This document shows, piece by piece, positions 5,725 to 36,300 of a stretch of DNA of 64,000 bases. Position 1 is the first letter of the stretch, and every line of letters begins with the position of its first letter. A program made the position numbers and the translations under genes. The stretch lies in contig CAJINV010000005.1 in NCBI GenBank assembly GCA_905178155.1, forward strand, positions 7,308,989-7,372,988, given 5' to 3'. The notes under the pieces were generated by a model. The model did no database searches, had not been told where the DNA came from, and was given only the letters and a program-made list of their open reading frames with translations. Source of the stretch: Amoebophrya sp. A120 (taxonomy: Eukaryota > Protista > Dinoflagellata).

Positions 5725-5800
5725 TTTTGATGAAGATGTTTGCTTGAGCTCTCTCGCGACTCTCCCGACCTCGACATGGTCTAACACTTGTGCGCGTTAC

Positions 5801-12675: not shown

Positions 12676-12820
12676 TATCCACAGTAAATTTCCCGTACAT
12701 GTGAAACTAAAAATGCGGTCTCGGCATGATCCTAATTTTTTTAGCATGACAATTGTTACACTGCAAATTGGTGAAATTTGTGATGCATCTTGTACATGTA
12801 CGGGAAATTTGTATTGCATA
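12676..12820. mobile_element. Introner in the putative 5' UTR of the GTPase gene
   Basis: AAAAC|TAT...ATA|AAAAC; inverted repeat AAATTTCCCGTACATGT / ACATGTACGGGAAATTT. Confidence 0.8.
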
Positions 12821-12829
12821 AAAACCAAG

Positions 12830-15800
12830 ATGGCCTACTCGCAGACCCTTTCCGGGTCCGACCGGGGGCTGCACATCGTTTTTCTCGGAGACCTATGCAT
12901 TGCAAAAGTATCGTACTCGTATAAATGCATTACAAATTTCCCTGGCATGAGAAATAAAATTTGTAATGCTGATTTGTAATGCATAATTGCAGTACGAGTA
13001 CGATGCTTTTGCACAGGATAAGACCCAGAGATAGGCCAGTCGACACTGCTGAAGTATTTCAGAAAGGAAACTCCCGTATCAAGTGTAAAAATGTCTGGGT
13101 CTGGAAGAATCATGCTGCTTCTGCATGACACAGGAGGTCTGGCATGGAAGCTCTAGCGTCACAGGTTTCGAGAAGCTTCCGCAATGCCGAATCCGCATGA
13201 CAAATCCCCCACTTTGGTGACAGAAAGTGAGCAGCTTTTGCTGCCTATGCATCAGAGATTTTTGTGTGTTCTGAAATGCGCATCACAAGTTACATCCTTC
13301 CAGACCCTGACATTTTTGCGCTTGATATCCCGGCACGGTAAACAACGTCGGAGTGGCGACCCCGTTATGGATTGCAAAAGTTAAAGTATCGTACTGGTAC
13401 TAGTAGTGCTTCGCATTACAAATTCACTCAGCATGACAAATGGAATTGGTCATGCTGTTTTACCTTGGAATGGGGATTTGTAATGCATGACTGCGATTAC
13501 TACGAGAAGTGCGATACTTTTGCACAGGATACCCGTCCAACCGCAACGAGATCTTGGATTTCAGCAAGCACCGCGGCCAGCAGCACGAAGCAGGTATCCT
13601 GTGAAAAAACGTCCTCAGCCTAGGTTTGTCATGCGAATCTGCATGCCTGAAATATTTCTCATGCGCAGTAAAGCCATGCGAAGCATTTTCTAATGCAGGA
13701 GCTGTCTGGGAGCTACTACTTGTAATGCTCGAATCAGGATAAGTGTTAGTGGACTTGAGAACACTCGCACACACTTACACACGTTTGCTCCACTGAGCTC
13801 GTTATCAACAGCAGTTCAATGAATTCTCTCAATTGCAAGCAAGCAAGCAAGTGACGCAAGTCTCTTGCTGCGTTACATCCTGTAGGTTCAATTCATCCAA
13901 ATTCAGCGCATTCATATGGACCGAACCTGGTCAGAGTCAAGTGGCAAAACAGCATGGGAGTCCACTCCTCAACCTGCTCAGATTGGTGCTCGACCCTGGC
14001 GGGAGTCAAGTCCCCCAGGGCGACCATTCTGAACGTCTGGACCGAGCTGAGTCCATTCATTTCACTACGATCCTGATGGCTTTGCCTTCGTAGTATTTGG
14101 GGGATTCGCGGAACATGGTGAAGAGTTTCCTTTAGGATCTAGATAGATTCTGACCATTTCCCTAAGGATCTAGCTAGTTCAGGTCATTCAGAGCTGTCAT
14201 TTCATTGGGAACAGGCGTCATTTGGGGCGATCGTGTTACGTGTGTGCGGGATCGATTTCCATGACCAACACCCCTCCTCAATCGCTGCGGCGGTGGTGCT
14301 AATCTGGATAGCGTCCTACCACACTCCCCTCCTGAGCGCGCTGTGGTGAACTAGCTATCCCCTCTAGAAACCAAAATAAATCGAATAAGTATAGCCTACT
14401 TTAGCCTTGCCCTTGTGATTCCCCTCTATAAACGTGTCTAAATCATCCTCATCGTCAGAGGAGTCACAAATAAAAGACTTAGGGTCGGGGTTATCAATAT
14501 GGTGCAAGAGTAAGCGTCTCTGCGGCACACTACACTCGAGCTTCGTGAGACCGTCTGCCTTCATTAGGTAGGTCGGGCAGAACATGATCTGGCTCGCTGC
14601 GTCTCTCACGCGGAGATATCGCAGTGCGTAGTGCCTCGATTTCGGTTTGTTGTCTGTGCTCTTAGCTGTAGTTATCGCGGACTGGTTGTCGATCCACAAT
14701 ATGGCATCATCCAGGGAGGGAGATAAGCCATTCTGCTTTTCCACCATGACAGTGGGTAGAGGTTTGAAGAACTCTGTAAAGTCATTCTGCTCGCTCAGCA
14801 CAATAGTGTCGGAAGCAGCTATATACTCCGCCTCCGCCGTGGAGTACGCCCTCACGGTCTGCCGGTTGCTACGCCAACAGATCGGGAAGCCGCGGAAGTA
14901 CATAATGCTACCACTAGTGCTTCGCATGGTCTTGCAACAGTTCGCAAAACTAGCATCCGAAAACAGATTCACATCAGGCAAGTCTCTCCCGTCGGGCAGT
15001 AGCTTGCTGTAGATTCTGTTGAATTCTTCCTCAATTTCCGGACTATACGACAGACCCTGCTCCTTCGTTGTCAATAGATACTTCAGAATCTTCTTACAGG
15101 CGTTTACGACAGGCCGAGTCGCCGGCTTGCCCACGTATCTGGCGACAGTGGCAACCGGGACAACAATGTCTACCCTGCAAGTGGTTGCAGCCCACTGCAG
15201 AGAGCCAACGACCTCTCGAAGGGGAAAACCTTCAATAACTTTAGCTCCTTCAACTTCTTTAGCGAGTTCAGACTCATCGAAGTTTGGCGAGTGGACCGGC
15301 TTGCCCGCTTCTGAGACGTGGAATTTCTTACAAATCTTGGATATGTACTCTGTCATCACGATCCTAACGGTTCGTAGATTCCAGTTGTAGTACACTATTG
15401 ACCCTAGGAAGTCAAACTTCTTGGACACAGAGTTAAACTCCGGAACAAGCTCGACGTCGATCATGCGCCCCTTGACGTGGTGCAAGATCTCCGCAAGTTC
15501 TCCAGCCAACTCGGACCCAGTCGGAGGACCTGTGATAAGATTATCGTCGACATACACTGCCAACTTCAGAAACTTCCCAGGGTGTTCCAAGCTCGGTTTC
15601 TTCCACAGACCTGGCGCAGAGGGACAGGGTTCCCAACCTAGCTTGGTCAGTACTTCCTCATACTTCTTATACCAGAGCCTGGGGGCGTCTTTCAAGCCGT
15701 AAAGCGCTTTCTTGAGCTTGACGATCTCCACGCCGTGCTTCTTCGCCCAGATGGGTGGCAAGCGGCAGAAGACGTCGCGATCAAGTAAGGCATTGAGAAA

Positions 15801-18800
15801 CGCACTATCAAGGTCGAACGGGATCACATCATCACCGTCTGCGGCTGCAGCGGCTAGAAGTAACCTGTTAGCGGCATGGGACACAACAGGAGCGAAAGTG
15901 TCCAGCTCGCCCGAACGATCTAGATTACCGAGTACTACTGCTCGCGCTTTCTTCGTACCGTCACGCTTCTCGGTAAGAAGGATAGCAATAGGCAAAACCT
16001 GCTTTGCGGTCGCTAGCTCCTCGTCAGTAGCTGGCTCCCACACTTTATAGGCTTCAAGTCTACAATCTTCCTTGTTGGTTGCTGCGTTCCATTCGACTGA
16101 GTCTTTGCAACGAGCAGGATCCAACTTGGCCGATGTAGTCAAGTAACACTGGACGTCGAGGAATTCCTCACCTTCCTCGCGATCATCCTGTGCTGCTATT
16201 GCTGCGGCAAAGGCACTAGCGTCCTTTCTCAATTCTGCGAGCTCTTTCTTAGTACGTCTCACGCGCTTTGTCTTGTCCTTTCTCCCTTTGGGACGACCAC
16301 GACCTCGCGGCTTGGAGTTGCGGTTGCCAGCCACAATCCTTGCCGGAGACGGGCTCGCCTTTCTTGGACTAGATAAGCTGCTGTGAGTGGGGTGATCGTC
16401 CAGATTCCCCTCCTCAGGTTTAACACCTTCAGGCTCGGGATCTATCTGGCCCGGATCATCTTCCCTATCCAGACTTTCAACTACCAACGTCTCTTCAGGA
16501 CCGTCAGGCTGCCTACCAGTGTGCTCCGAGACATCCACCCCCAGCCGGTGCTCAGCCCTTTTGATCAGACCGACACACGGGAGAGATGGCGCACACGACG
16601 CTCCACTAGGTAGGGCCTCGATTGCGTCACACTCGACATAGATACCTTTGGAGTTAGGAACTAGGTCTTCAATATTCTTCACGAGGTACTCCTCACGGAA
16701 CTTGACGTCGATGGTAGAATACTCCATCCAACGATGTCCCGCGGCGGACCGGCCGTCCGTGACATACGTCCCAACCCGCCAGCCCGAAGACTTAGGACAA
16801 AGGCCGAGAAATACACCACGACGAAATGGCGCGGACAGCTTTGGAGCAACCACTTCTACTCCCCCCTCAGGAGCTTCATGAGCTTCGCCTTTCTTGACTT
16901 GTTCACGAAAATAAACGAGACAACCAAAACGCCTTAGCATCCTTGTGCCAACTTTCGAGCTATTTCTTCCAGTTCTCTCATCCAGAATTTCTGCAGGAGT
17001 CTTTCCGTCGTACTCAGGCATTTTGCTATACTTATGCGGAAGGCGGTCCCAGCATGCTGCAGCGTACTCGACCGAGTAGCACCACAGACGCTTGTCCACG
17101 TTCACCAACATCGCACGCACAGCGCCGAATATGGTCCGCATAAAGCGTTCGCAGGTTCCGTTCTGCTCTGGGTTGTAGGGAACCGTAGGAGCATCACCGA
17201 CCCGCAGCGATTGCATGACCTTGGTCATGGAGTCACTGCCCAGAGCTGGCTCATTGTCCCTACGGACGAACCATGCCACTTTGTCCTCGAGGGTCAAAGC
17301 GTAGTTCTGGCGAATGCCTTTTATTACTTCTTCCAAAACCTCAACGCAGTCACTTTTCAGCTTAAGAGGGACACAGAAACACTTCTTGATGGCATCACAG
17401 ATGACCACAAGCACGCAGGTGCGTGACCGAATCGATACAGGTTTAATACCTACCGCGAAGTCCATCGCGAGTAGTTTCAATGGCTCAGGTTTGTAATTAC
17501 TAGTGTCTCGCTCCTTTGCGTGAGAGCTTCTCGCGCCTTTCGCTTTGTCGCATTCTCAGTCAGAGGGCCCCGGGGCCATTTTGTGGGTTAAAAAATGGCT
17601 ATTTTTTTTCTGATTTCGAAAAAGCGCGGTCGCTATGGGCCGCCTTAGCGAAGGGGCCGGCGCCGTATTCTTCGCCGGCCAGTTGGTGGCCCTTTGGCCC
17701 GCCCGTCGGTCTGGCCTTTTTCTTCGAAGGACCCCCGCCCGCTCTGATTTTTGTTGGTCCGCGCGCGTTGACGGCGCCGCCCTGTTGGTTTGTCTCCCCC
17801 AAGAATAGATTGCAGCTCGTTTGACAGGTCCAGGCGGTATCTTGGGCGCTTTTTTTCTATTGCAGCCGCAATAAGTTCTCAGCCCGGGGCCACAGGCCGG
17901 TTAGCGAAGATTTTTCGAAGGATCAGTGTGTTCAGAAGCTACCTGCAGCGCGCTTCGTAGTGTTTACTCTCATTGTTCCATCGTGTTGCAAATATATTTT
18001 TCCGGGTCCTTTTCCCCTTTTGTTCGTCGTGTGGTCGAAGCCAGTTTTGGTATCAATGTATGCTTTTCGCACACCGCCCCCCATAGAGTCGTTCTTTATC
18101 AGATTATATAATTTGTTTGTGAGTTTTCCATACGACGATGGTGGACGTCGACGGGAACATGCTCACACTTCCGTTCTGCGGTTTTGATCTACCTCTGGAA
18201 AATTACCGGGACATGGTCACACTTCCGCGAATTTCTCGCTGTGCGCGGGGGCGGTATCTCAAGTGGTTTGCGGCTGGTTTGGCAAAGATGGTGGGCAACA
18301 GCAGTGCGGCAGCACTTATCAAAACGAAATCGGAGGCGCAGGTAGGTCTGGAGTTCGAAGCCTGCTGGCGGCGGTTAAAGCTCGCATATCAACAGTGCGA
18401 GCTCGACATGATAAAGTTGCGGCTATCGCGTGCAGCACCGGCGAAGGGAATAGTAGAGCACATTGAGTTCGATGGCACACCGCTCCGCTGCTCGGTGAAA
18501 GGGGTGCACCACACTGGCGATTGTTTCTGCGTTCTCCAGGGCTTCGCGTTTTGGGATGATCGCGACAGCGTTGCTGCGGACAAAGTGCGCGCACAATTCC
18601 GCTTCTCGGAGAGACCGATGGTGCGGCTCTGGCGGTCGCTAGATTTGACGCACATGACCAATGGGCACACCGACGTGCGGACTTATCACGAACTCGATCA
18701 GCTGGAGACGGCCCGAGTATCTTGTGCGAGAGCCCCCGTGTCGGATTTGTCATGCGCAAAAGATGTCACGCAGGTGTCCTCCGAGAGGATATCTGATCAT

Positions 18801-21800
18801 GGTTTTTATTTCGTCCTTCATCATGCGGAGTTCTGTCATGCGTAATTTCCGAGCGTTGTTGTGGATAGTGTGTGTTTTTTCTATATCCAGTTGCCCCCTG
18901 GTCAACAGATGCACAGCATGACAAATCCGACACGGGGTGTTTTTTCGGTGTGATGGGCCGAGTTGATCGAACAAGCGTGTCCTCCTGGCTACGATGTCAA
19001 CTCCAGATTTTTCACTTTGACAAAATACACCGGCGATGGCGCTACTGCCGGCGTCTTGCGGCACTACGTCGGGCAGAGGCATGAACCCGAATTCATCCGG
19101 GCGGGAGGTTCTCTTGCTGGGGAGATGAGCCTGTGGATTTCGGACGAGTGTGCGGGGCACGGATTTCACGGCGGGGTTGGGGACGGTGTGGAAGTCTTTC
19201 TTTCCGATCACGACGCACTCGAGGACTTCAAAAAAGTCTGTCGCAGTTTTCGCAGATCAACCGACCAGCTTCAGAGTGGGGTAGTTCAGTGGTTGGAGGC
19301 GACGTACATGCAGATGCCGCTGTATCGCCTGCAAAACAAGCTGTGCCTAATCTGTCATGCTGTTTTTGGTATTTAGAATTAAAATTGCATGCCTGTCGTA
19401 TGTCCGCCCTAAGTTCCCGGGTATTTTCACCTTTCCTGCACATCCCGTACCACGCTGACTTCGATAGAAGCATTACAGATTAGGCTGCAGTGTTGATTTT
19501 GCATCTCATAACCCTGCACCCGAGGAAAAGGAGAGATACGAGCTTGCAGTGCGAACACTGCTACCGGAGCAGGACGGTCCAGATTCCCTAGCGCTTGCGG
19601 AGGAATTAATCAAGCTGGAACTTCGGTGGGAGTATCGTGTGCAAAAGTATCTTGCTCGTGCAAAGTGCATTCATGCATGACGTAGAGCTGCCATCTTTCT
19701 CTTCATGTGCATGACAGATCTCGCACTACGTATTCTTCAAAAATTTTATCAAGACTTACTCTGCACTTGTGGGGAGCTTTTGCAATGCATATTTCGGGCG
19801 ACTTTTTATTCGGGGCAGCCGCAATGGACCAGACCGATGCCGTGGCGGACCTTGTAGTGCGCCTGAACTTCCCGGAGGTACAGTTCGGGAGATTCGGGAA
19901 CAGCGTAAGCGCAATGCGGCGGTGCGCGGTTTCGTGCCTTGTCGGCCTTCTTCATCTCGGGCGGTTTATCGTTGCCCACTGCCCGCGGGTCGGATTCCTG
20001 AAGCAGGCCCAGGGCCTCAACCTCCCCGGCGACGAATTCATTTCTGCGGCCTGGGGTATTGGCCTCGGGCTTGGCGTCTTTGAAAAGTGCGAGAAGAAGT
20101 TGCTGAAGAGTGACAACATCGCTCGACTACATGAAATCGAGACGGAGTTTCTCGCCGATTTGGAGACCTTCCGTTGCGCAAACTGGTGGTGTATTTTACA
20201 GGTCTCCGGCCTCAAGGAAGACAAGGTTGCCGCGCTCGTCCAAAATATTGGGTACGCGATAGAAGCAGCAGCGGTGAGCTTTTCCGAGTTCCCCTTCCGC
20301 CGGCTGCGGGTGGCGCCGTACAGCGTGCTGCGGCCGCAAGAGAGGTTTAACCTGCGCGCGTTCCTCGAGCGTGTGGCAGCACTTCCGGAGGACGAGTGTG
20401 ATTCGGGGTTTACGTGGAAGCTCAAATCCCTACAGAACACGGCCCCCACCATCCTGGACCAGTGTTCCGGGTCATTAAAGGACGTCTGCGAACTTGTTCT
20501 GACCATGCCGCAGGCGATATATTACTGCGAGAGGACCCACAAGTTCTCGAGTAGGATGAACAAAGGTCGATGCAGTTTCCCCGTTGTCAATGAGTCCGCC
20601 TGGAATGAACGCTTCGCCCAGTGTAGTCATCTCCTCGCCCCAACCGTGCAACAGCTTCCAGCGGGCCCGGCTTCCATCGAGGAGGCCTGGAAAGAGAGCG
20701 GGGCGCACCAGGTCCGTACGTCTTCAATGTTCTGGTCGGAGTTCGCTCTACCGGCCGGCACAACTCTTGAAAACCAGGAAAAACATATGGTGGAAACAAT
20801 GCCGACCTTCCTCTACGCCAAACATGACCCGGACCGGAGGGCGCGACTGGTGCGGAAAGTTGTGGCGCACCGGGAGACCCTGCGCACCGCAGCGGTGGAG
20901 AAAATGGGAAAACTCCTGTCGCGGAAGGAGAAGATACAGAGCGATGAGGTGGACAAGATCACGCAATTTAAGATCACCAACAGCTGCAATCTCACTTCAC
21001 AAATCACGGACAAGCACCTTCTGGACGCGATCAACGGGCTCCGGGGGCAGGGCGTCGACAATCTCGCCAAGAGTGCGTGTCTGCAGCTGCCACTCACCGA
21101 CGAGTTCGAAGCGCGGGTAGTATCTGCTGCGGAAGAACTCCAGTTCTCCCTATCACTAGAGTGAGAATGTCTGATCCTTGGGCCAGAACAGAACTACGCC
21201 GATGCTTAGGTAGAATTTCGCTAGTAGCTTTTCTGCATGACAAACACAAAGACCAACCGCCCCGCTTTCGTAGTTCTGTCTGGGCACCGGGGGCAGGTTT
21301 TTTTGCAAGCCCATATCAGTTGCCCTACTTCCGCCTCCCGGACCTGGATTACCGTGTCACCGAGCTGCTGCGGCGTTTTGCCGGTGGGGAGCAGATACGG
21401 GGGGGACTTCTTGTCGTCCGCCCTGTCAGTCTGGACGAGTGGAATTTGGAAGCGGAGGTGGAAATATATCAGATTGCGCTTGCAGTGAAGCGGCCTTATT
21501 TTCTCGGTGGTGTGATGCTTGAGGCGCAGCAGGGACACCAGGACGACTCCGGCCTGTACTGGAAAACAAACGACTTTGCCGAGTTTACCACCTTTGAAGA
21601 CAGCAGCGAGATCTATTTCGTTCCGCCCGCGCACGTCCAGGCAGTTTCTGTTGCCTGTGTCGGGCTCCCCTTCCCGCTGACTGCACACAGCGTCCCGTTC
21701 TTTCCCGGGGCAGAGCGTCTCGCTGGGGGCCGTGTCAAGAAGAGGGAGCAGGTGGAAAACCGTTCGGGGCACCAGGCAGAGAGGCGGGTGCGGGAGTTGA

Positions 21801-24800
21801 AAGCGAATATACGGAGGATGCGCAATTTAGAGGTAGACCGACCAACAGTCCACGTTTGGGATGATGAAAACTATGTCGAGCAGCGAGATGGAGCACGAGC
21901 GGAACTGCAGCGAATTCGCGACGAGGCGGAGCAGCAGTTCGGCGTAGATGATTCTATTGCGTTCCAGACCGACCCCGTAATGAGGGCATATCCGCGTGGG
22001 GGAGCATGGTGTTTGCAAAATTTGGGTCTTGCTGTGGCGAACTGGAAATTTGAGATAACGTGCAGAGCCACCAGGAAGAAGGTGGAAGAAATAGGCCTTC
22101 CGCACTCCAAAGACGCGAGCGTTGCAGTTTGGGGCGGCGAGGAACGTGCGAGGGCACACGCGGTCTTAATCTGGAAGATCTTGAAGTGGGCCACTGCTGC
22201 GGGGGTGGTTGGTCTGCATGGGCCCACTGACGCCTACTCCGAAATGTGCCGCGAAGAGTATCAGCAGCAGTTTGCTGATGCGCTGCAGCTCGATCGTCAG
22301 TTTTTAAGCACAAAGAACCTCCTCAATAAGTGCAAGAGAAAGGAGTACTTTGATAACCTTGACAAACTAGGATCAGAGGCGGTCTATGTTTTTCCGATTC
22401 AGAATGAATAAAAATCGAGAACGTTTCCTCCACTGAAGATCTCACTTGTCGCATTTTGATCGCTCTGTTTCATTTTTTGTCCCGGTTCGACACAAGTTGT
22501 TTCATATCTATTTGTGGTCCATTTTTTATCTTCCTTCACTTTGAAACCTTTTTTGTCCGTCAATTTTTGGTGGCGTAGCTGCCGATCTCCGCATAGATAA
22601 GTCCAGATCTTCGGCACATAAAGATCTCAAAACTTGATTTGTCATTCAACATCAAAGCCGTTCACACTTTAAATGATGGGGGACCTGTCATCGGCAGCTG
22701 CGGGCGCATCCAACAAGCGCCCAGCAAACAAAAAGCAGGACGTATTATCTGCGTTTGTCAACAACAAGAAAAACAACAACGCGATGAAGAAGGACGAGTC
22801 GAAGCTCCTGCTGCCCGACGAGAACCTCTTCGACATGGACCAGGAGCAATCGGTGAGGAAATAGTCTTGTCCTTCGGTTTTTGCATGACATTTCCACAAA
22901 GCCTTGCGAGCCAACTGACATGAACTAGAAAGCGGGGAAATGTGCGACCAACCCTCGGGGACAACCCTTGGCGCACTGGTCGAAAATCTTCTAAATTTGG
23001 GAAACGTGCAATTTCCTTAGGGATTTCCCTGTACTCAGGATTTTTGTCTTCTTCTGCCGCAAGGCAAAAGACAAAAACCAGAAAAAAGTTAGACCACTAG
23101 TTAGAAGCGCCATTTAGAAACGAATTTAGCACAGGGAAATAGCAAAGGAATTTAGAGTAAGAAAATAGAAGGTGAAAATAGAAGGCAGATTTAGAAAGAA
23201 AAATAGAAGGAAATTTAGAAAGAAAAATAGAAGGGGCAAAAATAGACAAAAAAATAGAAGAAATTTAGAAAGGGGGAGCAGTTGTGATCTGACAGCCAGG
23301 ATTCCGCTGGAAAATTGCTGACTGCGCCCGTGCAAAATCAAGCGCCCACTCAGGCGCGCTTTAAGAGCGCACTTTTGTCCTGCGCTGCCCCGACCGCCCC
23401 CGCCCGGTGCAGGCGGTCCGCAACTGCGCAAACATTTTGTTGCGCCCCCCAGGTTGGGCTCGTGCGCTGCTTGGGGCCGTTGGTTTTGGGAGTTTTTAGT
23501 ATTGGGCGGAGCTGTGGTGGACGTCAGGGCGATGTTCACCATAGCCTCGTGCCTGCATTTCTAGTTCATGTCCAAACGCTCGCAAGGCTCAGCACACACA
23601 GCAGTGAAGCCAGCAGTAAACAACCACGACTCAGGTTTATGAAATATAGCAACGCCCTCTCTTCGTGATCGGATCCAGGGTTTTGAGGAGTCTCCGGGGG
23701 CACTCAACACAACCCACAGCTCTAACATACAGAACAATACAAGGAAAGCAGGCGTAGCGCATCCAATCCCGAAGAGGTTTTTTCCCCTTTGATAGTGGTG
23801 CCATCGATATGGACGACAGTAAGACTGCGAACGACGGCAAGCAGGCCTCCAAAAAGCGGCGGCGGGAGGTGCGTTCCGCCGCGGACGACAAAGTCCTCGA
23901 AGATGCGATTGACACCTGGTTTCTCAGCAAGCGGAAGAACAACGACACTTGGAAATTTGACAGCGCCGTCATGAGGTCGGAGTTTGTTTCTATGGGGTGC
24001 AAAAATGGTCGTGTGCATTGTGGCTCTGCATGTGTGCGAATTTGTCATGCGGGGGATGGGAGGTGGAAGGGACTTATAGGCCCTTTCTGGCTTTGTGATG
24101 CGTATTTTCCCCAAGTTGTCATGCAAGGCCTGAAAATGTCTCTGTCATGCAGGAGTCGCGAAACGAAATTTATATCACACCAGCAGCACCCACAATGTCC
24201 ACGCACTGTTTTTGGGATGATAAGGGCGGACGCGAACAAGATTGCCCCCAAGAAGAAAACAATCAAACAGTACATCATGGACACCTACGTTTCGAAAACG
24301 CGCAAAACCTTCTCCAACTTCACGCTGGTGAAACACCAGGAGGCAACAGTTCTGAAATTGTTGCAGGAAGAGCAGGCGCGATTGGCAAAGCAGCAGGTAG
24401 TAGGTGTGCGCGACCTTATCGCCACTTGTTTCGGGACGGAGGGCCCGCAGCAGGGGAAGGACGCCCTGGCGATTGGTTGGGCGCACGCGGAGCAACTGCG
24501 GTTAATGGCCAGCGTCGCCAACAGCAGCTCCTCGCTTGGAAACAGTTCAAAGGCACCGGCCGTTGCTGCGGTGAAGCAGGAGGAACAGCAGGATGTCGAG
24601 ATGGAAGACGCGGACTTGGACGGGAAGGGTGGCGATGGGAATAGAACTCCTTCCGGGGGAGAAGCAAATAAATCGGGATTGCTCGGCGGAGGGCCCGACG
24701 AAAAGAAATTGCTGGGGGGCGAAGACGCAGATCCGAAGACACCAGCCAGGAACGACAAGAGCGCCGGAAATAACGCCAACCTCATCAACAAAGCAGCATC

Positions 24801-27800
24801 TTCCTTGAAGCAGAAAAATTTGCTGATCGCGTCCCAGGCATCGCAGGACGATGAACCGTTTTCCCCGGGAACTCTGGCCCTGATGCAAGACACGAAGGAC
24901 CTGATCGCCCGTGGGCCGGGCATGGAGACGATCGGGAATGACACTGGTGTTCCGTACGACAAAGTGCGGGATCTCTTCAACGACGCCGAGATGGGCGACT
25001 GGGACGCGGAGACAGGGTGGATTGGCATTATGCGGCGCTGGGATAATCCAGCGATCAACCACGAGCACCTGGAGTGCATGGTGACGATGCATCGGCAGGC
25101 AAAAGGTATTTTTTGGCGATTTTTCCCATGTAGAGCAGCATGACAAATTTAGGATTGTAATCGTCTTTGAGATTTTCTTTCTTTTGCATGCATCTATGGC
25201 AACTGCGTGCAGAACGGCCACACGCATCACAAACCTGATGGTCGTAGTCGGTCTCTTGTTTTCGGAGTTCCCTGTTCTTCGATCTCGATTTCGGTCTACG
25301 GCATTTCCGTTCCGCGCGCTTATATGCATGACAAGGTCGCTTATCGAATTCTGCGTCTCAGAGCCTCAGCGCCTGTCTTAGTTATCAGCATGACAAACTG
25401 GCTTTTTTATGATTTTTCTGAAACTTCAATCAACAGCGGCCGGCGTCAAGACCGAGCCGTACACGACGGCGTTGCCGGCGGCTATTGTGGGGCTCCTGAC
25501 CGACCGGTGGGATCTCGGGACGCACTCGAGGGCCGACTATTTTGAACTGTAAGTAGTTCGTTTTTCCGTCTGCTACCGCACTTCGCAACTTTTTATAATA
25601 TCCGTCTTCAGAATGAACGAAGAAGCATTTCGCGCATGACAAATCCACAATGCGCAAAAATCCACACCTTCAGGTTTGGAAAATATATGAAGCCTGCGTC
25701 GGAGAATACGATCGATTTCTGGCAGACCATGAAAGCCAACTGCGAGGATGGAAAGTTGCGCGTCCCGGAGAGCAAGGTTGTACAGGTGTACAACAAGTGC
25801 AAAATGGTGGAGATTCCGGGGCTGTTTGCCGTCGAGGCGGCGGACCTCAAGGTCAAGGCCGAACACATGCAGCGAAAAACGCAGATCAAGCTGGTACTTA
25901 TTTCCCATGGCCCCACTGTGGTCTATTTCCGTATGTTGTGAGATCTTGCAGTATGGGTAGCAGTAAGTTTGGAGGGCGTGTGCGAAGTCTCTTATGCAAA
26001 TGCACTGAAAAAAAAAAATGCAGGAAGCAAAGCCCATCCTGGACGCCTGGGATTCGAAGACCCCCCTGTCCGCCGTGGAGTTGGATAAACTCAACGCCTC
26101 CCTCGAGGGCATTCTCATCAAGGTCAAGGCCTCAGGGAAAGCAGGGGAGTGGTACAAGGCCTTCCTGTCCATGTTGCACGACAATGGGGTTAAGTCTGCT
26201 GGCCCGTGGCTGCGGGATGTTTGTCTGCATGGGGCGGACTTGCCTGCGATGCACCAGATCTTCGACGGCATCAACGTGTTGGACAGCGTGCGGGCAGCCC
26301 GGGTGGGACTGAAAAAGCAGATTGACAGAGTCTTCAAGCCGACCGACGGACTGTATATACAAATAATTGCGGCGCTTCTTTGTATTCTCTGCCCTGATGT
26401 GCTCCCTCCATTTCTACCAGGCGCATGACAGATCGGCTATTACAGCTGCCGCTGGTGTTTTCGTATTAGTGTCTCGAGCATTTCCGTGCCCGATCAAGCT
26501 CTCTGTGGTGTCAGTCGGTGCGCGGTCATATTTCCCCCAGAGGTGATAGTAGCTGTCTTGTATCTATTACCAAAACCCACTTCCCAGGTTCAAGCTGTAC
26601 CAGGTCGCCCTCGCGTTGAACAAGGAGACTCCGTATTTGACCTACGAATTGGATTTGCTGCGCATGGAGTGCGACAAGCTGAACGACTCGCAGTATGTCA
26701 TGTTGGCTGCAGCGGAAGAAGAGTGGGTGCAGCCCCCGGGTTGGATTTTGGGTGGCCAATGGGACGAAGCGTCGAAACAGATGGAGGAGTACATCACGTA
26801 TCATTTGCAAAATTACCGCGCAGTCGCACAACGGTGTTTCGTGAGAAGTCTATAATGCGAGGAAAAGCAATGTTCCAGATCTCCCCCTCCCCTTCAAAAA
26901 ATTCGCAATTAGATCTAGATTAGCTGCGCGGTGATTTTGCAATTCATATCGCGTGGGCGTTTGCCAAACGGGCCGAGGCGACCGAATTGGGCAAGGGAAA
27001 GGACGAAACCTCTGCGCTCATCCGCTGCTATGGGGAAAACCTGGCAAAGAAGGTCTCCGTCACGCGTAAAAATGTCGACGCGATCGTGGCGAATTTCGTC
27101 ACCACGGTGACTGCGCTGAAGAAGAACAAAACGGCGCCGCGTATTTCGTTTTGATTTGTGCACTTAAAACCATTCCTCCGTAGCAATATGCACATGCAGA
27201 CTCTCATCGTCATCTCTCGATCCATTAACCCCTTCGCGATTTTTCTTTTTGTCCATGCAGGGGCCAGAGCTTGTTTTTTTCTTTATTGTAGAATAAAAAT
27301 ACTCACAGTTCTGGAAAAGGCGGGAAAATGGTACCAGAAGATCAAGTGGGGAGTGGCCTTCTTCACAGAGGATCACGAGAGAAAGCTGCAGCCCGCGATC
27401 ACCGCTCTGCAGCTCGTCGAGGCGGAGGACGCAAAGGCAACGGCGAAAAAAACGGCGTACGACCGCGGCATCATCAAGGCCACGAAGGGGAAGGTCGCGG
27501 CGATGAAAAGGAAAGCGTGAGTCCCAACACGTGATCAACTGGAACTGGTGGCGTTGACACAAATGGAGCTTTAGCATAACAGACTTACCATTCAAATTCT
27601 GAACTTCTCTGGACATTCAGTCACACGATGACGCCCGTGCTGCGATTGACTCGGAACAAATGAAAGCGTTTGCTTCTGCAAAAACTCTGCGTGGTAGCAG
27701 GGGTGAGAATACAGACTATTTAGCGGCGAGCTTTGGATGTGTTGAATCGAATGAACAAGACACACGGAAGAATCGAAAACCGACAGGCCACCTGCGGCAC

Positions 27801-30800
27801 AGTATCACAACGGACACCTTTGACGAATTCAACGAACATCCCGGATTGCACGAATCACGACTCATTTTCCAAAACTCACAAACAAGACTGAACTGATAAA
27901 GAACGACTTGCATTCCAACCGAATTGGTGAAGGACTCACTCTATGCGGATTTGTCTTCCTGTATTCTTTCGTCTTCGTCTTTTTCCGAATTCATTGTGAA
28001 GGAGCCCTTCCGGGGTCATTTTTAGTCCAACCTCTGTGCATCCTCATCATGCAAACCAACGCGGTGTTGGAATAGGAGGGGCGCTCCACAATCACGATCC
28101 GCTGCGGGTGTTGCAGCGAAAAAAACAACACATGACCACCCCCCGTCCGCGGGCGGCGGGCCCTTGCAGTGGTGCCCCCCGCCTGTGGCGCCAAAAGCGG
28201 GGCGCGTGGCCGAGGCTCTAGTGGCCGCGCCAGAGTCGCGCGCCGGGTTCACGCTATCTTGCGCGCAGCCTGGGTAGATTTATACCTGCGACGCTTCTCT
28301 GCCTTCCGGCCGCACATGGCCCGCGGGATACCACGGGGGCAGTGGCGCCCCTACTTCTGTGCCGGCTCCTGCGCCACCAGCCGGCGCCACGGACTCGCTG
28401 GCGGCCGTGCTTTTGAAAAAATCAGAAAAAAATTAGAAAAAAATTAGAAGCACCCACCGCCCCGGGCCCTCTGACTGAGCATTCAGGACGCTGGACACTA
28501 AGACCATCTACATGAAAGTGTCCGAATCTTCTATGTTGTTCTAGACGCGTAAGGTGACAACTAGCAATACTTTCTTCGATTGTAATGCATGCAATGTCTT
28601 CCGCGGTGTCTCTAGTCGTCTGACCCCGGAGGCCCATCACGAAAAGATCACACCCAAGGACTGGGAGGTTCATCCTCTCGTGGTTCTTGATTGGTAGCAT
28701 CTGACCGGATTCCCTGTTGACGAGAGAACCGCCAGAGCTGTTGTAGTTCAGATCCCGCCCACGATCACTGAGATTGTCCTCACCGAGCCACGGAAGAATA
28801 CGATCAATATCTCTTGGTAGATGTTTAAAATAGACGCCATAGGGCAAACCTAGAGCGTTTTCCTTCAATTTTCCGCCAAAACCATCACGAGCCCCGGCCG
28901 TGCCGTTGATGCGACAGACGTTGCTCGAGATGTCAATAAAATCCGATTTGTGTCTAGATAAATACTTGCTTGCACATGAATCGACCAAGCTCGCTTCGTC
29001 CTTGATCTGTGCAGTAAAACAGCTAAAAGAATCTACATCAAATTCCTCTAAATTCTCGAAGTTCAGCATACAACTACCATACTCCGAGATATAAACACCT
29101 CCTTCATCGAGTCAGGCTGGTCCTTGCCAGACCCAACCACCCTGCTTTCCACCGGCTCCCTGCCCTTGATTCTGGTTGTTCATTTGGTTCTGGTTCACCG
29201 GCGGACACCACTGCGGCTGCTGGTTTCCCCAGACACCACCCCACTGACCTTTCCCTTGATTGTTAGGATTCCAGCGGCAACGGTCCGCCTTATGGTTTTC
29301 CTTGCCACAGATCCAGCATTTGGGTTTGGTCACAGTGTTGTAGGGAGTGCTCTGGTTCCGACCAGTCTTACCACCTTTCTGGCCACTTCCACCCTTAGCG
29401 TTAGGCTTCGGGGGCAGGCCATGGGCAGCCAAGACACTCGCTTCGGTCTGCTTGCGTAATTTGGCTTTCATGCGTTTCAAGGCTTTCGCCGAGAACACCT
29501 TGCCAGAAGAAGCATTTTGACCATCATCAGCGGAGTCCGGCTCCTCATCATCATCGTCATTTTTCTGACGCTTATTCCCCTTCTTGTTCTTCTTCGACTT
29601 CTCCTCGACGACCGGGAAGGCCTTGCCGAAGGACGGGTTCTCAATCTTGTAGGACCCCTCCTTGACCAGCTGCGCGAGCTTCTTCTCGAGACGGTTCCCG
29701 ATCTCCTGCAAGGTGATGTGATCGGACTCGTCTACGCAGCGGTCGATGGTCTGGCGGAAGGCCGACGCAAACATCTTGGGCAACTTGTCCAGAATGTTCT
29801 TCACATGCTGATCTTCAATCGGACGCCCGGGCTCCGGGACGTAGACACTCGGCGCCATCTCCATCAAGTCGTGGATCTGGGCCAGGAACGTCGGAGCATC
29901 CTTCGGCGCGTCTCGGTTGTCGAAATGCATGGCGTCGATCGAGGACGTCTTGATGTGCTGCTGGTCACGGGAGGCAACATTGAAGCGACCAACATCACGA
30001 ATACGCATGAACAGTTGCGCAGCGTCGTCGTTGATGTAGTGCTGACTGTTGACCCACGTGGACACGGACCCGGTGCGTGACTTGTAGATGGCATCCTTCA
30101 GGTCGCGCCACTTCTCCCGGATCGCATTATTGGCAGTATTGTTCGCCTGCGGAATCCCCGGAGGGTTACCGGCAAGACGATTATCCCAATACTCCTGGAG
30201 TCCGAGGCGAGAAACCTCGTTCGTGACTCCGCGACGCCAGACGCGCCAGTCCTGCGCGCTGGACAACTTCTCCGTCAATTTCGCCTCTTGGCCCATCTTC
30301 AAACACTTATCTGACTAGAAGAGCCAGCTTGAGTCTCAAGGCGTAACGTAGTGTTAGTGGACTTGAGAACACTCGCACACACTTACACACGTTTGCTCCA
30401 CTGAGCTCGTTATCAGCAGCAGTTCAATGAATTCTCTCAATTGCAAGTAAGCAAGCAAGTGACGCAAGTCTCTTGCTGCGTTACATCCTGTAGGTTCAAT
30501 TCATCCAAATTCATCACATTCATATGGACCAATCGGGTTCAGAGTCAAGTGGCAAAACAGCATGGGAGTCCACTCCTCAACCTGCTCAGATTGGTGCTCG
30601 ACCCTGGCGGGAGTCAAGTCCCCCAGGGTGACCACTCTGAACGTCTGGACCGAGCTGAGTCCACTCATTTCACTACGATCCTGATGGCTTTGCCTTCGTA
30701 GTATTTGGGGGATTCGCGGAACATGGTGAAGAGTTTCCTTTAGGATCTAGATAGATTCTGACCATTTCCCTAAGGATCTAGCTAGTTCAGGTCATTCAGA

Positions 30801-31909
30801 GCTGTCATTTCATTGGGAACAGGCGTCATTTGGGGCGATCGTGTTACGTGTGTGCGGGATCGATTTCCATGGCCAACAATAAGATAGGCAATTTGTGATG
30901 CAAATTCTGCTTCTTCATCACTAGCTAGAGTAAACAGGACTGATACACTACGAGCTGCCCACGGAACTTGTCATGCTTGGGAACCAATAAAAGCTGTTCG
31001 TTTTTACGCAGGATAGCAGGGGGCTCCTCCCCGTCTAGCTCCAAGCCGGCGGATATCATCATACCGGAGCATATGGAAGCGTCAGGATTGAAATCGACAA
31101 AGTTGAAATTATTTGCGATGCACAAAATCAATGCCAGTTGGGCCTCTTCAGTTTCTCAGTGGCGCATGACAAATTTAGAAAACACCAAAATACAGTCTGT
31201 CATGCTGTTTAGGAAAAGTAGACTGCTCCTGTCATGCTACTCTGTACTCTGGCAGCACATCGCCTTCCCCTGAACAGGCTCGCAATCGCTCGCATTTGCT
31301 TGCTCCCCAACACAGGCCATCCGTGCTGTGCATTTTATGCATTACAAATTTTTCGATTTTGTCGATTTCGATCCTGACATTCCCATAGAGCACCAGTCGT
31401 GCGTCCTCGACCAGGTCATCGAAAACGAGCCATTTTATCGAAGAAAAAAGCTACATTGTTAGCTGTAACTTTGTGATGCGCAACATGCAAAGTGATTGCG
31501 GCTGTCATGCTCAGCATGCATGGTAAAGTCGTCCATCCAGGCGCGTTTTCTCGGCATACCATCTGCGCATGACAGGTTTTTGCTCTCATACATGCCAGAC
31601 GGATTTGTCATGCTGCTCCTCCAAGAACGTTACACCTACAATCTTTTTTTCTTGGATATGTTTAGGATACGCTTCACGGACAGTGGGGGACTGTCGGTGT
31701 ACGACAAAGTGCGAAAACCAATCCTACGAACAGCGCATCTCGTCGTGCTGTGCTTCAGCTGCGCGAAGAAACAGTCCCTAGCATCGGTGAAGGAAAAATG
31801 GTTACCACTGGTCAGGTCATTAGCCTTTTTGAAGAAGGACAGGGAAGAGGATTTCGTCTTTCTGAAGCCAGTGATACTACTGGGGCTGCAAACGGATTTA
31901 CGTACTTGA
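12830..31909 (+). CDS. Rho/Miro-like small GTPase-fold protein, 7 or more exons (12830-12893, 13026-13076, 13333-13365, 13537-13594, 31021-31071, 31393-31435, 31664-~31901)
   Basis: Deleting each introner plus one direct repeat gives one open frame: MAYSQ...LHIVFLGDPEIGQSTLLKYF...FRIRFTDSGGLSVYDKVRKPILRTAHLVVLCFSCAKKQSLASVKEKWLPLV...PVILLGLQTDLR. This matches the G1, G3 and G4 layout of Rho-family proteins. Confidence 0.8.
12894..13020. mobile_element. Introner (GCAAAAGTATCG family), non-canonical intron
   Basis: AGACC|TATGCATTGCAAAAGTATCGTACTCGTA...TACGAGTACGATGCTTTTGCACAGGATA|AGACC. Confidence 0.9.
13077..13327. mobile_element. Introner (CCAGACCCAGAC family)
   Basis: TCCCG|TATCAAGTGTAAAAATGTCTGGGTCTGGAAG...CTTCCAGACCCTGACATTTTTGCGCTTGATA|TCCCG. 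Confidence 0.9.
13366..13531. mobile_element. Introner (GCAAAAGTATCG family)
   Basis: CCCGT|TATGGATTGCAAAAG...CTTTTGCACAGGATA|CCCGT. Confidence 0.88.
13744..14270 (-). repeat. 3' LTR of copia copy 1
   Basis: TGTTAGTGG...ATGACCAACA, one of four similar 527-bp copies in the window. Confidence 0.95.
14364..17555 (-). pseudogene. Copia pol 3' part (integrase core, RT, RNase H), cut off from its 5' part
   Basis: Integrase PYNPEQNGTCER; RT FDLDSAFLNA, LKKALYGLKDAPRLW and VYVDD; RNase H FSDASFA and STAEAEY. Almost identical to 38444-41560. Confidence 0.93.
18138..21164 (+). CDS. Putative divergent DDE transposase (CxxH type, hAT/P/MULE-like spacing), split by about 3 degenerate introners (~18718-18957, ~19323-19510, ~19633-19791)
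   Basis: Ordered motifs: HIEFDGTP (D, ~18471), YTGDGA (D, ~19035), DECAGHGFH (CxxH, ~19149), long helical insert, MPQAIYYCERTH (E, ~20529). Motif reading by eye only. Confidence 0.55.
21168..22411 (+). CDS. Orphan ORF 2 of the 10.9-kb element
   Basis: About 414-codon open frame (MSDPWARTELRR...) starting 3 nt after the stop of the transposase candidate; no recognised domain. Confidence 0.6.
22676..27520 (+). CDS. Orphan multi-exon gene(s) 3 of the 10.9-kb element
   Basis: Series of GC-rich, coding-like + strand blocks (22676-22852, 23809-23980, 24223-25105, 25675-25893, 26020-26352, 26588-26798, 27028-27140, 27309-27520; edges approximate) separated by AT-richer GCATGACAAA-containing spacers. 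Basic NLS-like KKRRR. Confidence 0.55.
23100..23275 (+). repeat. Purine-rich degenerate tandem repeat (AAAATAGAAG / ATTTAGAAAG units)
   Basis: Visible repeated units; similar AAAAATTAGAAAA units occur at 28420-28450. Confidence 0.7.
28485..30296 (-). CDS. Copia copy 1 gag (to TGA at 29112) and in-frame 5' pol (protease, integrase Zn-finger start)
   Basis: Gag zinc knuckle CWICGKENHKADRC; protease-like LVDSCASKY; HRRFGH just before the insertion point. Confidence 0.9.
30352..30878 (-). repeat. 5' LTR of copia copy 1
   Basis: 527 bp, TG...CA, followed by TSD ATAAG. Confidence 0.95.
31072..31387. mobile_element. Introner (TATGGAAGCGTCAGG family)
   Basis: GAGCA|TATGGAAGCGTCAGGATTGAAATCGACAAA...TTTGTCGATTTCGATCCTGACATTCCCATA|GAGCA. 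Confidence 0.9.
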
Positions 31910-33329
31910 TATTGATGGTTGATTTTTTTCTCGTAGTTGCTGCAAATACAAGCGCACGTCAATGAGATGCAAATAACAACTTCAACCGTGCATAGAATTG
32001 GAAATGGATATCTTCATGTCTGAGCGTGACAGATGAATGAATTTCTGTTCCCGCAGCTTCGAGGGAACCAATGGCAGGATCATGTTGTCATGACGGGCCA
32101 GGTATCTTGTAGAGTTGTACTCCGAGAAGTAGTAGAACTTGCACAACATCACACCAAACATACAATTTCAGGCGCATCTTCCTCCGTCGCGGTAACAGAA
32201 GGGGAGGCTTCCAAATTCGCAAACTATCCTGTTGCACACTTTGGATCAACGTCCCTGAGGTCTGGTGGAATTGCATCAGTGCTAGATGTATGATTCGGAA
32301 GCATGTCATGATAGCTCGTGATATGATGTTGGCAAAAACCACGTGCGTTAAACATTGCGGTCGTCTAGCATGTCAAAAGAAAAAAGGAAAACCGTTTGCA
32401 GTAGAGGATATTAGAAATTCGATCCGACACCGACTGTAAAAGAACAAGTTGACCGGAAGATCTAAGTCAAGACCGCTGGTCCCGCCATTTGTTTGCAATC
32501 GATAAACCCGAGGCGGAAGCCATCAGTTACCTGGAGTGCTCCCTCGCAGCGGATCTTATCCCATCAAAATGAATTTCTTCAACAGCCACCTCCATCAAGT
32601 TCAAAGCAGAAGAGTTGTAGAACCAGAACCCCTCCGTTTTGCGTACTGTGGTCATGATGGCCATACCTAGAGATAAAAAAAAAGCTGCAAAAGGTGGATT
32701 TATCCCGCCGTCCAGGAGTGCATGCTGCACACAAAGTTGAGTGGCGCTATCAGAATCTTGTGGACACGTGAATCCATTTCTAGTATTTGTGCCTTGATGG
32801 ACGGTGGAATGTTTTTTTCCAACCGCGATAAGCTCGGACGAAGCGCTAGACGCCCTGAGGACGAAAATCTTGAGCACGGCGAAAGAGTATATTAGTGCCT
32901 TCGCTTTATTTTGTTTCAACTTCTTGTTTTGTTAGTTCTAGTTGTGCCGGCCGCGGAGGCTGCGTCTGCTTGTTCCTGTTGGTCTTTTCATGCACGAGAA
33001 AATGAAAAACAAGATTGAAAATGAATATTGAAAATCAGGTCCTACCTATTCCGATGGCAGCAGAAGAGAATAAAGCGGTCCCTGCGGGGGGAATCCGACC
33101 AAGCGGTGGACTATCCAGGGAAAAAACAGTGCTAGAAGTTGAAGTTGTGTGAATGGTTCTCTATTACAGTGCATGTAAGACTACAGTGACACTCACTCTT
33201 ATCAGATGGCCGCACACTAGCGCTCATGGGAAATAAAATTTCAGTTTCACGCAGTATCACGGAAAGCGAAAAACAAGTTTTTTTTTGTCATGCTGCAGAC
33301 CGAATTTGTAAATGCAAGTCAAAGTAAAC

Positions 33330-36300
33330 AGCTTTTTTTTTCTGGATATGAACATGGGGGCTGCCGACGTGGACAAGTATGTGGCTGAAGCCTTTATGAA
33401 GTGCAAAAGCATGATCGTACTACGTATAAATTGCATTAGCATGACAGACGAGATTTGTAATGCTGTTTTAGCTAATGCTAGGGAAGGCGGAGGCGATTTG
33501 TCATGCATGTCTGCAATTGGTACGACTGCGATCCTTTTACAGTGCATAGCCTTAACGGTCGAGCAAGACACCGACCCCCTCGCGAAAGAGCAGATCACGC
33601 AAAACCTATCCTGCCTCGGAGTCACCCCCTACATGAGCCATGCGTACTTTAATTCTTTAATATCCACCTACCGAGTACTAGAACACGATGAATGAGTGTG
33701 CTGCATGCTTTTGCAGCACTGCTGCGTGTGATGGTGCTGTTCATTTTCATGAATCCGGGCTGTAGATAAAGGAGTTGTAGCAGGCACGTTAATGTTTTGA
33801 ATATGAACAGGAAAACAAAAAATAAAAAGCTGTGATGCAAAAACACTGCCACGAATCTCAGATACCTGCAGTGTGACCTTCCGGACCTCGGGCTAACGAG
33901 CTGCGATGCCTTACGAGGATTTCCGAACCTGCGTATCCTGTGTGAAAGCGCTTTCAAATCCATTTTTACCTGGAAGATAGTAGTCCTGCTCCTGCTACTC
34001 GACGCATTCCAGCAGATCCGCCGAAAATTGTCATGCGTGGCACGACCGCAGGCTCCTCTCAACATGATGACGATCTTCTGGTGTGTATTAAAAGCGTTTT
34101 TGCACAGGATACGGTAGTATCTGGACATATCAAACAACCAGCTGCGATCGCTGGAGCCGTTAGGTATCGATTCGTAATATTCAAGTGGAAGTAGTTTCAT
34201 GATCGTCCTCGATCAGTACGTAAAATGAGAAATAGCAGTGACGGATGACTACGGGTACCGCGTCAGTGCATGACCGATCGAAGCCACATTATATCAGTTT
34301 CTTCGTTCGGACAGATCGTGTGCATAAAATTGGAACTACAAAGACCCTCTGACGAATGATGAAAACGAAAAACCAGCAGCAAAGATGACAAGTAACAAGC
34401 TGCTGGTCTAGAAGGCTGGTTAAAATTCACAGTCGTCAACAAACAAGTATACATCGATTCAAATTCAGGTGAGCTCCCATTCCTGCTCCGGCTCAACGCA
34501 TCCAGAAACCAGATGGTCCGCACCCAATCTACCAAAGTGTGCACAACATGCACTCATACTCAGCCTCACCCTCGTCTTGAGACGAGTGTGTCGCGTCTAC
34601 AGCAAGTATAAGCACAAGGCGCCGGTAGTACCAGTAGCACAGCCTTTATTGCATCGACTACAATGATCTGCACTCTACACATGAGTTGATGTTGATGTTG
34701 TCGTGAAACAAGTGCAAACAGACCAGGAGGGGGTTTATTGGCACATTAGTGCATGCCAGGCGAAGGGCACCAGCAGGATGAGTTGTTGTGCAGTCTCATA
34801 CAAGCCTTCGGACCGCCACGACATCTGGAGTCCGTATGCAGTGTGATGCAGCAACAGAGTTACCTGATTACGGTGTCTTCTTGGTAAGTACAGTTTCTGG
34901 TGCAACAATAGTAGCGGCATCTCCTTCGTACCAAGATAACGACAAGTAGACTTTCATGATGCGCACTACTCAACAGAGAAGATGGTGTTGTCGCGCATAA
35001 AGGTGTAAATTTTTTTCTTCTACTCCGTCCGGCCTACCATTGGTACTGCAACTGCTACTGCTGTAAAAGCACGTAAGTAATATGGAAGACTTCGGCACGT
35101 AATCATTGGAAAATTTTGTTTCTCCGCATACTCCATTGACCTCTCGTACAACCTAATCTCCGAGCTGGGCGACTGGCGCACGCACAAGATGTACCCTATG
35201 TGAAAACGTCCGTCCCCACTCCAGACGAGTTGTAGTGCAAATCTGCATGCCTATCTAAAAATATTAATATTTCTCATGCGCACCCGCTTGAGAGGCCCGT
35301 TTGCTAGTGCTATCTTGGAGTAGTTTGTCATGCTAGACGAGTCAGGAAGATATGTTGATCGATTTGTGATGCGTAATTCACTGCTAGTCGAAAAAAAAAA
35401 AATAAAAACGACTACACCACAATCCCGAACCTGTCATGCGCATGAGGATGAGCCAAAACTTGCTGCCGAATCTGTAGAGAAACCCCTCAGAAATTTGACT
35501 CTGGGCGGTTGGAGGGGACGTACTAGTTTTTCCACCCGATAAGAAGCTCCGGGAGTTGAACCTGCGCGGGAATTTCATTTCCGAAATCGACGGTATCGCG
35601 CTGCTATGCATTGCAAAAGTATCGTGCTCGTATAAATGCATTACAAATTGACTTAACATTACAAATTAAATTTGTAATGCGGATTTTCCTTAAGCAGAAG
35701 ATTTGTAATGCATAAACGCAATTACAATTTAGTGCAAGTGCGATACTTTTGCAATGCATAGCTGCGAAAAAACTCCAGGCTCAAAATGCTGGATTTGAGC
35801 GAGAACCACATTTTCAAGATCCAGAACCTATCACGCAGAAAAAAGCAGGCAGATCGCATTTGTAATGCAAAAATAAATACACAAAAAAATCTGTGCTGCA
35901 TAGCTCAAGCAGCATGCTGCGGGACCGCCCATGACAGATTTTTTTGTGTGTTTGTTCTTGCACTACAAGTGTTGGTCATGGAAATCGATCCCGCACACAC
36001 GTAACACGATCGCCCCAAATGACGCCTGTTCCCAATGAAATGACAGTTCTGAATGACCTGAACTAGCTAGATCCTTAGGGAAATGGTCAGAATCTATCTA
36101 GATCCTAAAGGAAACTCTTCACCATGTTCCGCGAATCCCCCAAATACTACGAAGGCAAAGCCATCAGGATCGTAGTGAAATGAATGGACTCAGCTCGGTC
36201 CAGACGTTCAGAATGGTCGCCCTGGGGGACTTGACTCCCGCCAGGGTCGAGCACCAATCTGAGCAGGTTGAGGAGTGGACTCCCATGCTGTTTTGCCACT

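Follow-up and report, generated by a model that had tools for sequence, protein, structure and literature searches.

Two transposon-swollen introners in one gene of Amoebophrya sp. A120 are joined out of RNA-like contigs, likely with cut sites set by their paired inverted ends

We analyzed a 64,000-nucleotide stretch of the genome of the dinoflagellate Amoebophrya sp. A120 (contig CAJINV010000005.1, positions 7,308,989 to 7,372,988 of the forward strand; hereafter the window, numbered from its first letter), in which a GTPase gene carries two introners swollen to many kilobases by transposon insertions. The window is crowded with 130-350-bp elements that start with TAT, end with ATA and have 5-bp repeats at both sides, a hallmark of A120 introners (PMC7789003). 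Related introners recur across it and have a very high summed contig depth in the DNA run X1; copy numbers were read from contig depth only. The host gene (12830..42623, plus strand) was delineated from contigs of the RNA-like runs X6 and X7, its open frame, and Pfam and Protein Data Bank (PDB) matches. It encodes a Rho-like GTPase domain that a linker connects to leucine-rich repeats. Its exons, joined by script, form a single open frame of at least 455 aa, mapped on the 3' side to about 42620; its three 5' introns are predicted from the anatomy. The GTPase part matches RhoU/RhoA in the PDB and Ras in Pfam (E 2.3e-4, just under the curated cut-off), LRR_8 matches weakly (E 0.032), and the repeat part presumably resembles LRRC23/LRGUK. 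Another introner (12676-12820) lies in the 5' untranslated region, and the loose end of an X5 contig before 12821 reads an upstream exon.

The larger expanded introner (13595..31015, plus strand) was defined from boundary sequence and RNA-like joins and spans 17,421 bp, or 281 bp when empty (149 + 132). Its 5-bp target-site duplication (TSD), GCAGG, stands at 13590-13594 on the left and 31016-31020 on the right, enclosing a terminal inverted repeat (TIR) that opens with TAT at 13595 and its partner that closes with ATA at 31015. Inserted in it is copia copy 1 (13744..30878, minus strand), with 527-bp long terminal repeats (LTRs) at 13744-14270 and 30352-30878, the TSD ATAAG at 13739 and 30879, and gag and pol frames that are intact once its own insertion is taken out. 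That insertion is a TIR DNA transposon of 10,923 bp (17556..28478, plus strand), single copy in X1, with the TSD GCATTC at 17550 and 28479. The nesting is four layers deep: introner, copia copy 1, the 10.9-kb element, and six introners in the genes of that element. The two copies of the TSD agree in all four cases; at a given boundary, a 5-mer or 6-mer would match by chance with a probability of about 1e-3 or 2e-4, respectively. A first-pass annotation made from the letters alone had described the GCAGG, ATAAG and GCATTC duplications as intact and the flanking exons as still in frame; both statements are borne out, and every coordinate it gave checked out.

The second expanded introner (35829..42215, plus strand) measures 6,387 bp, or 171 bp when empty, and holds copia copy 2 (35970..42180, plus strand; TSD ACAAG), which is inverted relative to copy 1. 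Between it and a 308-bp introner (42226-42533) we place a candidate micro-exon of 5 nt (42220..42224, plus strand), read from the loose-end letters behind 35829 in X6 and X7. Both copias have 527-bp LTRs with TG..CA ends and 5-bp TSDs (ATAAG, ACAAG), one long frame of about 400 codons and another of about 1272, and an RVT_2 domain at E about 3e-28 (copy 1 2.6e-28; 99 bits against a cut-off of 31.6); their Pfam scan gave no rve match and a weak retroviral SH3 match ahead of the reverse transcriptase. The LTR ends, TSD length and RVT_2 domain are shared with Ty1/copia, whereas both window copies depart from the Ty1/copia norm in having an in-frame stop that separates gag from pol. This single stop (37739-37741, with a matching site in copy 1) splits one gag-pol frame and is possibly read through.

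Splicing was examined in assembled contigs of public sequencing runs. Of the 22 runs listed, none that was reported to contain window sequence is on record as RNA; X5-X8 are one sample that we guessed to be RNA, of which X5, X6 and X7 were used, and the DNA run X1 is from a different sample. In X5, the loose end of a contig behind 13594 reads the window from 31021. Runs X6 (1845 nt, depth 19.3) and X7 (1801 nt, depth 65.1) contribute one contig each, whose loose end before 31015 reads 13560-13589. These two contigs contain at least 13 joints between 31066 and 35132, and their loose end behind 35829 continues with four letters of 42222-42225 and then from 42539 onward. Both expanded introns are joined out in the RNA-like contigs, 13594>31021 in X5-X7 and 35829-42215 in X6 and X7, so that the RNA check proposed by the first-pass annotation across 13594/31021 and 35828/42221 finds its spliced joins in public data. 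That annotation had assigned the two introns to different genes. The contigs splice 31901>32172 and then continue through 35829 and further, which makes the GTPase and the copia-2-bearing gene one transcript; a gene stop at 31909 was discarded on the same run-on. Within one pre-mRNA the two copias lie inverted, with 5,091 bp between them and a complementarity of 96-99% across about 6 kb. A long copia-copia duplex could form around exons 31020-35827, yet the contigs contain these exons.

Four of the 13 listed joints in X6 and X7 are ordinary GT..AG introns and nine are of the TIR type. Each of the nine fits a register, here called -1/+4, in which the cuts fall 1 nt upstream of the left TIR and 4 nt downstream of the right TIR; for joint 34528>34805, the TIR start at 34530 was placed by eye. 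Where the flanking repeats are unequal, the RNA shows which letters remain: at 32555>32835 and 33932>34116 only -1/+4 is possible, and there is no second register that the nine have in common. This register removes one copy of the 5-bp duplication and implies intron ends as diverse as AT..GC, TT..TT, CT..CC, TT..CT, CT..AA, GT..GT, CT..AG and GT..CC. It is compatible with every TIR intron examined. Applied to the four introners of gene A in the 10.9-kb element, it yields one 1167-aa frame collinear with homologs, and it also reproduces the annotated protein P0001. In the 17.4-kb intron, -1/+4 removes 13594-31019 and leaves GT..AG ends, the canonical register that the first-pass annotation had found available there. 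Because the two registers coincide, canonical and TIR-guided splicing cannot be told apart at this intron. The informative test is the 6.4-kb intron, which is spliced without a canonical register: its ends under -1/+4 are CT..AC, and none of its six allowed registers is GT-AG, GC-AG or AT-AC, as had been claimed for the introner with copia copy 2 (GAACC/AAACC). The earlier proposal of the two introns as a natural experiment on TIR-guided splicing therefore keeps its anatomy and its idea, and its contrast of a canonical with a non-canonical intron is weakened, since GT..AG in the 17.4-kb intron is simply the general register.

The inverted ends of both expanded introns can pair. In the 17.4-kb intron (border repeats GCAGG/GCAGG), 16 of 20 positions form Watson-Crick pairs and one a G-U pair; in the 6.4-kb intron (GAACC/AAACC) the figures are 16 of 20 and two. 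Across the entire 17.4 kb, the best duplex partner of the left TIR is its cognate right TIR (-20.1 versus -16.7 kcal/mol). It has 2 mismatches, against 4-5 at ten further sites that end in ATA and include four nested introner ends. In the 6.4-kb intron, no ATA-ending site other than the cognate right TIR has 5 or fewer mismatches. We propose that the two TIRs would pair in the pre-mRNA and that the paired TIRs would present both ends to a relaxed spliceosome lacking U1, so that loop size would hardly matter; short nested introns of the same strand would likely be removed first. In our judgment it is reasonably probable, though far from settled, that both swollen introners are joined exactly, likely from the insertion-bearing allele and likely with cut sites set by the paired inverted ends.

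Several observations weigh against this reading, some in how the ends are recognized and others in where the RNA came from. The frame test on gene A fixes the removed length only, as +4 and +7 both leave the frame open. The 6.4-kb TIR pair, at -15.5 kcal/mol, is closely followed by the next site (-15.3 kcal/mol), and three spliced introners pair poorly, with dG of -1.3, -4.5 and -5.8 kcal/mol. Furthermore, nine of ten ordinary introns checked start with GTAT, GTAC or GTAA, so N-TAT may be read as a relaxed donor. Such donors and the weak duplexes, together with the retention of nearly all spliceosomal proteins in A120 (PMC7789003), speak for ends that are read as motifs (a relaxed GTAT donor in the form N-TAT; an acceptor made up of T-tract, ATA and 4 nt) under exon definition and with no TIR pairing. 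Under such a scheme, however, the left end of the 17.4-kb intron must skip six nested introner 3' ends plus several AG acceptors, all on the same strand, to reach a cognate end that is also its best complement. The 5-nt exon beside the 6.4-kb intron is hard to accommodate by exon definition, and the analogous introns of Euglena need fixed spacers to paired motifs (PMC12501133). We therefore regard recognition by motifs only as unlikely, and favor pairing-guided presentation to a relaxed spliceosome with moderate confidence, a grade that already includes the caveat about the allele.

That caveat arises because the RNA-like contigs come from one sample, only guessed to be RNA and different from the DNA source, and are contigs instead of reads. 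In principle, cells that lack the big insertions could be the source of the spliced RNA, or the nest could be misassembled, with the 10.9-kb element belonging in copia 2 or in another copia. Among the contigs listed, none spans the whole 17.4-kb intron, and the DNA support for junctions covers copia 1 only. The X1 contigs there run unbroken across both copia-1 junctions at single-copy depth, including where an empty allele would branch: one (13479-13771, depth 46.9) contains exon, introner and 28 LTR letters, and the other (30852-31099, depth 52.6) contains 27 LTR letters. A third (17526-28469) covers the inner element at depth 44.4 with 0 differences. Single-copy host DNA has a depth of 44 in X1 and copia internal DNA about 500-1200. 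The repeat-side stretches of these junction contigs (28, 27 and 30 letters) are below the 31-letter rule for bridging, as expected of a 31-mer graph at the edge of a multi-copy repeat. The RNA-like sample also holds transcripts of the single-copy inner element (X5 record 11 with 0 differences in 5 listed pieces, record 10 with 1 difference), and the spliced RNA likely came from the insertion-bearing allele. The metagenome X9 returned short repeat pieces only and no empty-site allele, and from the raw RNA runs X20 and X21, labeled as the same species, came 93 and 2 partial reads, every one of them on introner sequence.

The LTRs of the copias match crosswise, which also counts against the assembled nest. 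The two LTRs within each copia differ at 13 and 10 sites, whereas the copy-1 3' LTR differs from the copy-2 5' LTR at 2 sites and the copy-1 5' LTR from the copy-2 3' LTR at 5. Variant site 78 goes with the elements, and nine others go with the cross. The copias are identical over about 3 kb of pol, and they diverge by about 4% in the 5' 2.7 kb. This pattern fits a reciprocal swap, real or assembly-made, in which the inverted copias exchanged their 5' parts; a simple inversion between them is excluded by the TSDs and the exon order, and independent aging of the LTRs by the nine variant sites common crosswise. The repeat assembly may thus be chimeric. Because the swapped 5' part includes the insertion site of the 10.9-kb element, which copia carries that element is ambiguous. 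If the swap were an artefact, the introns would measure 6.5 and 17.3 kb with the non-canonical one the longer, which would strengthen the result. An N gap elsewhere in the window (6682-6835) is flanked by a perfect 2,402-bp duplication (4280-6681 and 6836-9237) that is likely an assembly artefact. Considering the four matching TSD pairs, the junction contigs and the expression of the single-copy element, we find an insertion-free source or a misassembled nest rather improbable.

Separate transcription of the two halves deserves still less weight. The halves could be distinct RNAs, formed by polyadenylation in the element and an inner promoter and trans-joined via the TIRs, or the intron could be removed stepwise through inner sites. 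Gene B of the element, which lies inside the intron, is transcribed in the same orientation with a contig end at 27893, the intron contains eight AATAAA words, and these organisms trans-splice leaders (PMC7789003). Against this, no listed contig starts in the intron and enters exon 31020, contigs being unable to show ends, and cis splicing is simpler; we consider joining in trans or by steps very improbable.

Both expanded introns have three features by which A120 introners are recognized, an inverted repeat of 8-20 nt starting from TAT with an A run, a border repeat of 3-5 nt and removal from the RNA-like contigs. They differ from the A120 introners of Farhat et al. (2021; PMC7789003) in their lengths of 6.4 and 17.4 kb and in the fixed -1/+4 register derived here. 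That study mapped introns to 10 kb, analyzed only those of 40-1000 bp, and left the border position undetermined (Fig. 3 legend, PMC7789003). The A120 families of Gozashti et al. (2025) have mostly non-canonical ends and alignment coordinates that reach 4.5-18.8 kb, which are alignment columns, not lengths, for the 40 of 58 A120 rows covered (Dataset S2, PMC12130899). The largest family among those rows, fam3, has RVT_2 and integrase matches (PMC12130899). Together, the multi-kilobase families and the copia domains of fam3 indicate that transposon-swollen introners probably recur in the A120 genome. The same report classes families as TIR, LTR or non-LTR, and the consulted sections do not describe nesting, an RNA join or a cut register. 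Our literature search found no RNA-verified multi-kilobase nested introners and no fixed register in Amoebophrya; the register may be given in subscription papers or in supplements (e.g., PMC7789003, Figs S19-S25). There is also a likeness to the nonconventional introns of euglenids, which have pairable inverted ends, direct repeats at the border and fixed cut distances (PMC12501133; PMC11282704). The euglenid spacers, shown experimentally, are 3 nt and 5 nt around CAG/CTG (PMC12501133), as opposed to 1 and 4 nt around TAT/ATA in this unrelated lineage, and in the consulted parts of those reports intron length was varied by only 5 bp.

The 10.9-kb element encodes two proteins from the plus strand. 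Gene A (18138..22411) has five predicted exons (18138-18716, 18960-19321, 19515-19631, 19796-21149, 21320-22411) separated by introners at 18718..18955, which has a degenerate TIR, 19323..19510, 19633..19791 and 21151..21315; no RNA covered it in X5. Gene B (22673..27520) encodes a spliced 840-aa protein of no known family, supported by the RNA-like X5 records 10 and 11 with 0-1 differences and by P0001 of Amoebophrya sp. A120, which it matches at 839 of 840 residues. Its two introners, at 23991..24222 (flanking repeats nearly lost) and 26799..26948, are absent from the annotated protein, the latter also from the RNA contig by record-length arithmetic. The inner introners, called degenerate in the first-pass annotation, thus appear functional, two being gone from the gene B protein and the removal of four keeping the transposase frame open. 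Within the first intron of gene B (22853-23796, about 940 bp) are A-rich tandem repeats as well as a GC-rich block, a possible promoter.

For gene A, 1.84 billion representatives were searched, with 7 matches, 5 of them with E <1e-30. Of these homologs (P0002-P0006), three are from Amoebophrya AT5.2 and the others from A25 and an MMETSP transcript; they are 27-39% identical and collinear over the entire gene; identity to P0003 and P0004 is 38-39% over about 1130 aa. Homologs were found only in three Amoebophrya datasets and that transcript, and at this level of identity they suggest an old, unnamed transposase lineage. Conserved motifs are FDGT, GDGA, CxxH, GRFGN and CER; the first three are kept in the window protein and its homologs, and CER has a candidate catalytic glutamate (QEQ in P0006), the catalytic roles being assigned from conservation. 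A CxxH-type motif is common also to Kolobok, P, MuDR and Dada (PMC3706591). A model of P0003 residues 21-620 from 10 alignment rows (predicted local distance difference test, pLDDT, 71.8; predicted template modeling score, pTM, 0.70) had Hermes as the top 5 rows in Foldseek, at E 7e-3 to 4e-2 and none <1e-3. The VIA comparison, which covered Foldseek's rows only, gave Z 9.9-11.1 for Hermes with 332-352 residues aligned at a root-mean-square deviation of 5.4-6.6, against Z 7.2 for the next unrelated row and 6.0 for the P element. Modeling the large exon of gene A from its sequence alone gave an unusable result (pLDDT 37.8). There were no matches in Pfam scans of the element's open reading frames, the gene A exons and the homolog alignment A1, or in PDB sequence and profile searches with those exons and A1. 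Exon 1 found no longer homologs, A1 found its own members only, exon 2 had no match in the Atlas, and 131 pattern matches in metagenomes gave 0 confirmed loci.

We interpret the gene A product as a predicted hAT-like DDE transposase that is intact once its four introners are removed, and do not file it as a hAT member because no sequence profile matches. Its likeness to hAT (Hermes) lies in the D-D-CxxH-(R/F)-E layout, a large helical insertion, the best fold match and short TIRs, here 15 bp perfect and about 21 bp with one gap. Unlike hAT, it has no Pfam or PDB sequence match, an enzyme of 1167 aa, a length of 10.9 kb with a second, 840-aa gene, and TCAG termini. The hAT superfamily has 8-bp TSDs, with 5-7 bp in subgroups, and the 6-bp TSD of this element is known at one insertion. 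TSDs of 6 bp are known for hAT6 (PMC12730594). An OLD/TOPRIM nuclease assignment for P0006 (rows 0.85-0.86, below threshold) was dropped after the fold search pointed to Hermes. Polintons/Mavericks and Polinton-like viruses have 6-bp TSDs, long TIRs and lengths of about 10-20 kb; this reading was set aside as unlikely, as gene A folds like Hermes, and no Polinton-type integrase, protein-primed polymerase or capsid was matched by Pfam in the element's open reading frames. The rest of the window contained no relative of the element, and the literature searched contained no report of a hAT transposase in Amoebophrya.

Amoebophrya has no detectable U1 snRNA, and how it removes its non-canonical introns, which number in the tens of thousands, is an open question (PMC7789003). 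This locus gives constraints on the answer: a fixed cut register, a loop of 6.4 kb (possibly 17 kb) tolerated without canonical ends, and a cognate end chosen over nested decoys and beside a 5-nt exon. In its strongest form, a ruler mechanism would cut 1 nt upstream and 4 nt downstream of the TAT/ATA stem ends, with any dinucleotides and across at least 6-17 kb, and introners would be neutral havens for retrotransposons and for an unrecognized two-gene hAT-like lineage whose transposase went unannotated because introners split it; we would as readily expect this to fail as to hold. If the pairing view is true, introners would be safe landing sites for large transposons, and the hAT-like element would depend on this host splicing for the production of its transposase. 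Transposons nested in introns are common in other settings, and what is unusual here is an intron defined by its transposon ends. The register is also a practical rule for re-annotating the A120 genome, where it exposed the intact DDE transposase. Putative transposases had been reported only in A25, not in A120, in the consulted text (PMC7789003), and the argument against a transposase-driven spread of introners is reopened. The element itself is probably not the introner mobilizer, because its ends (TCAG, 6-bp TSD) differ from those of the introners (TAT, 5 bp).

Elsewhere in the window, a region at 600-5800 (plus strand) combines, by eye, a frame at 1342-2841 with reverse transcriptase-like and RNase H-like motifs, a frame at about 4500-5720 that resembles a tyrosine recombinase, and split 283-bp repeats. 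We regard it as a putative DIRS/Ngaro-like retroelement; its Pfam scan was without match. An Rfam scan of 12-46 kb gave 0 matches. Two introners stand back to back at 44925-45494 with one shared 5-bp repeat between them, and a near-perfect 63-bp palindrome lies at 48888-48950 within an introner-free stretch.

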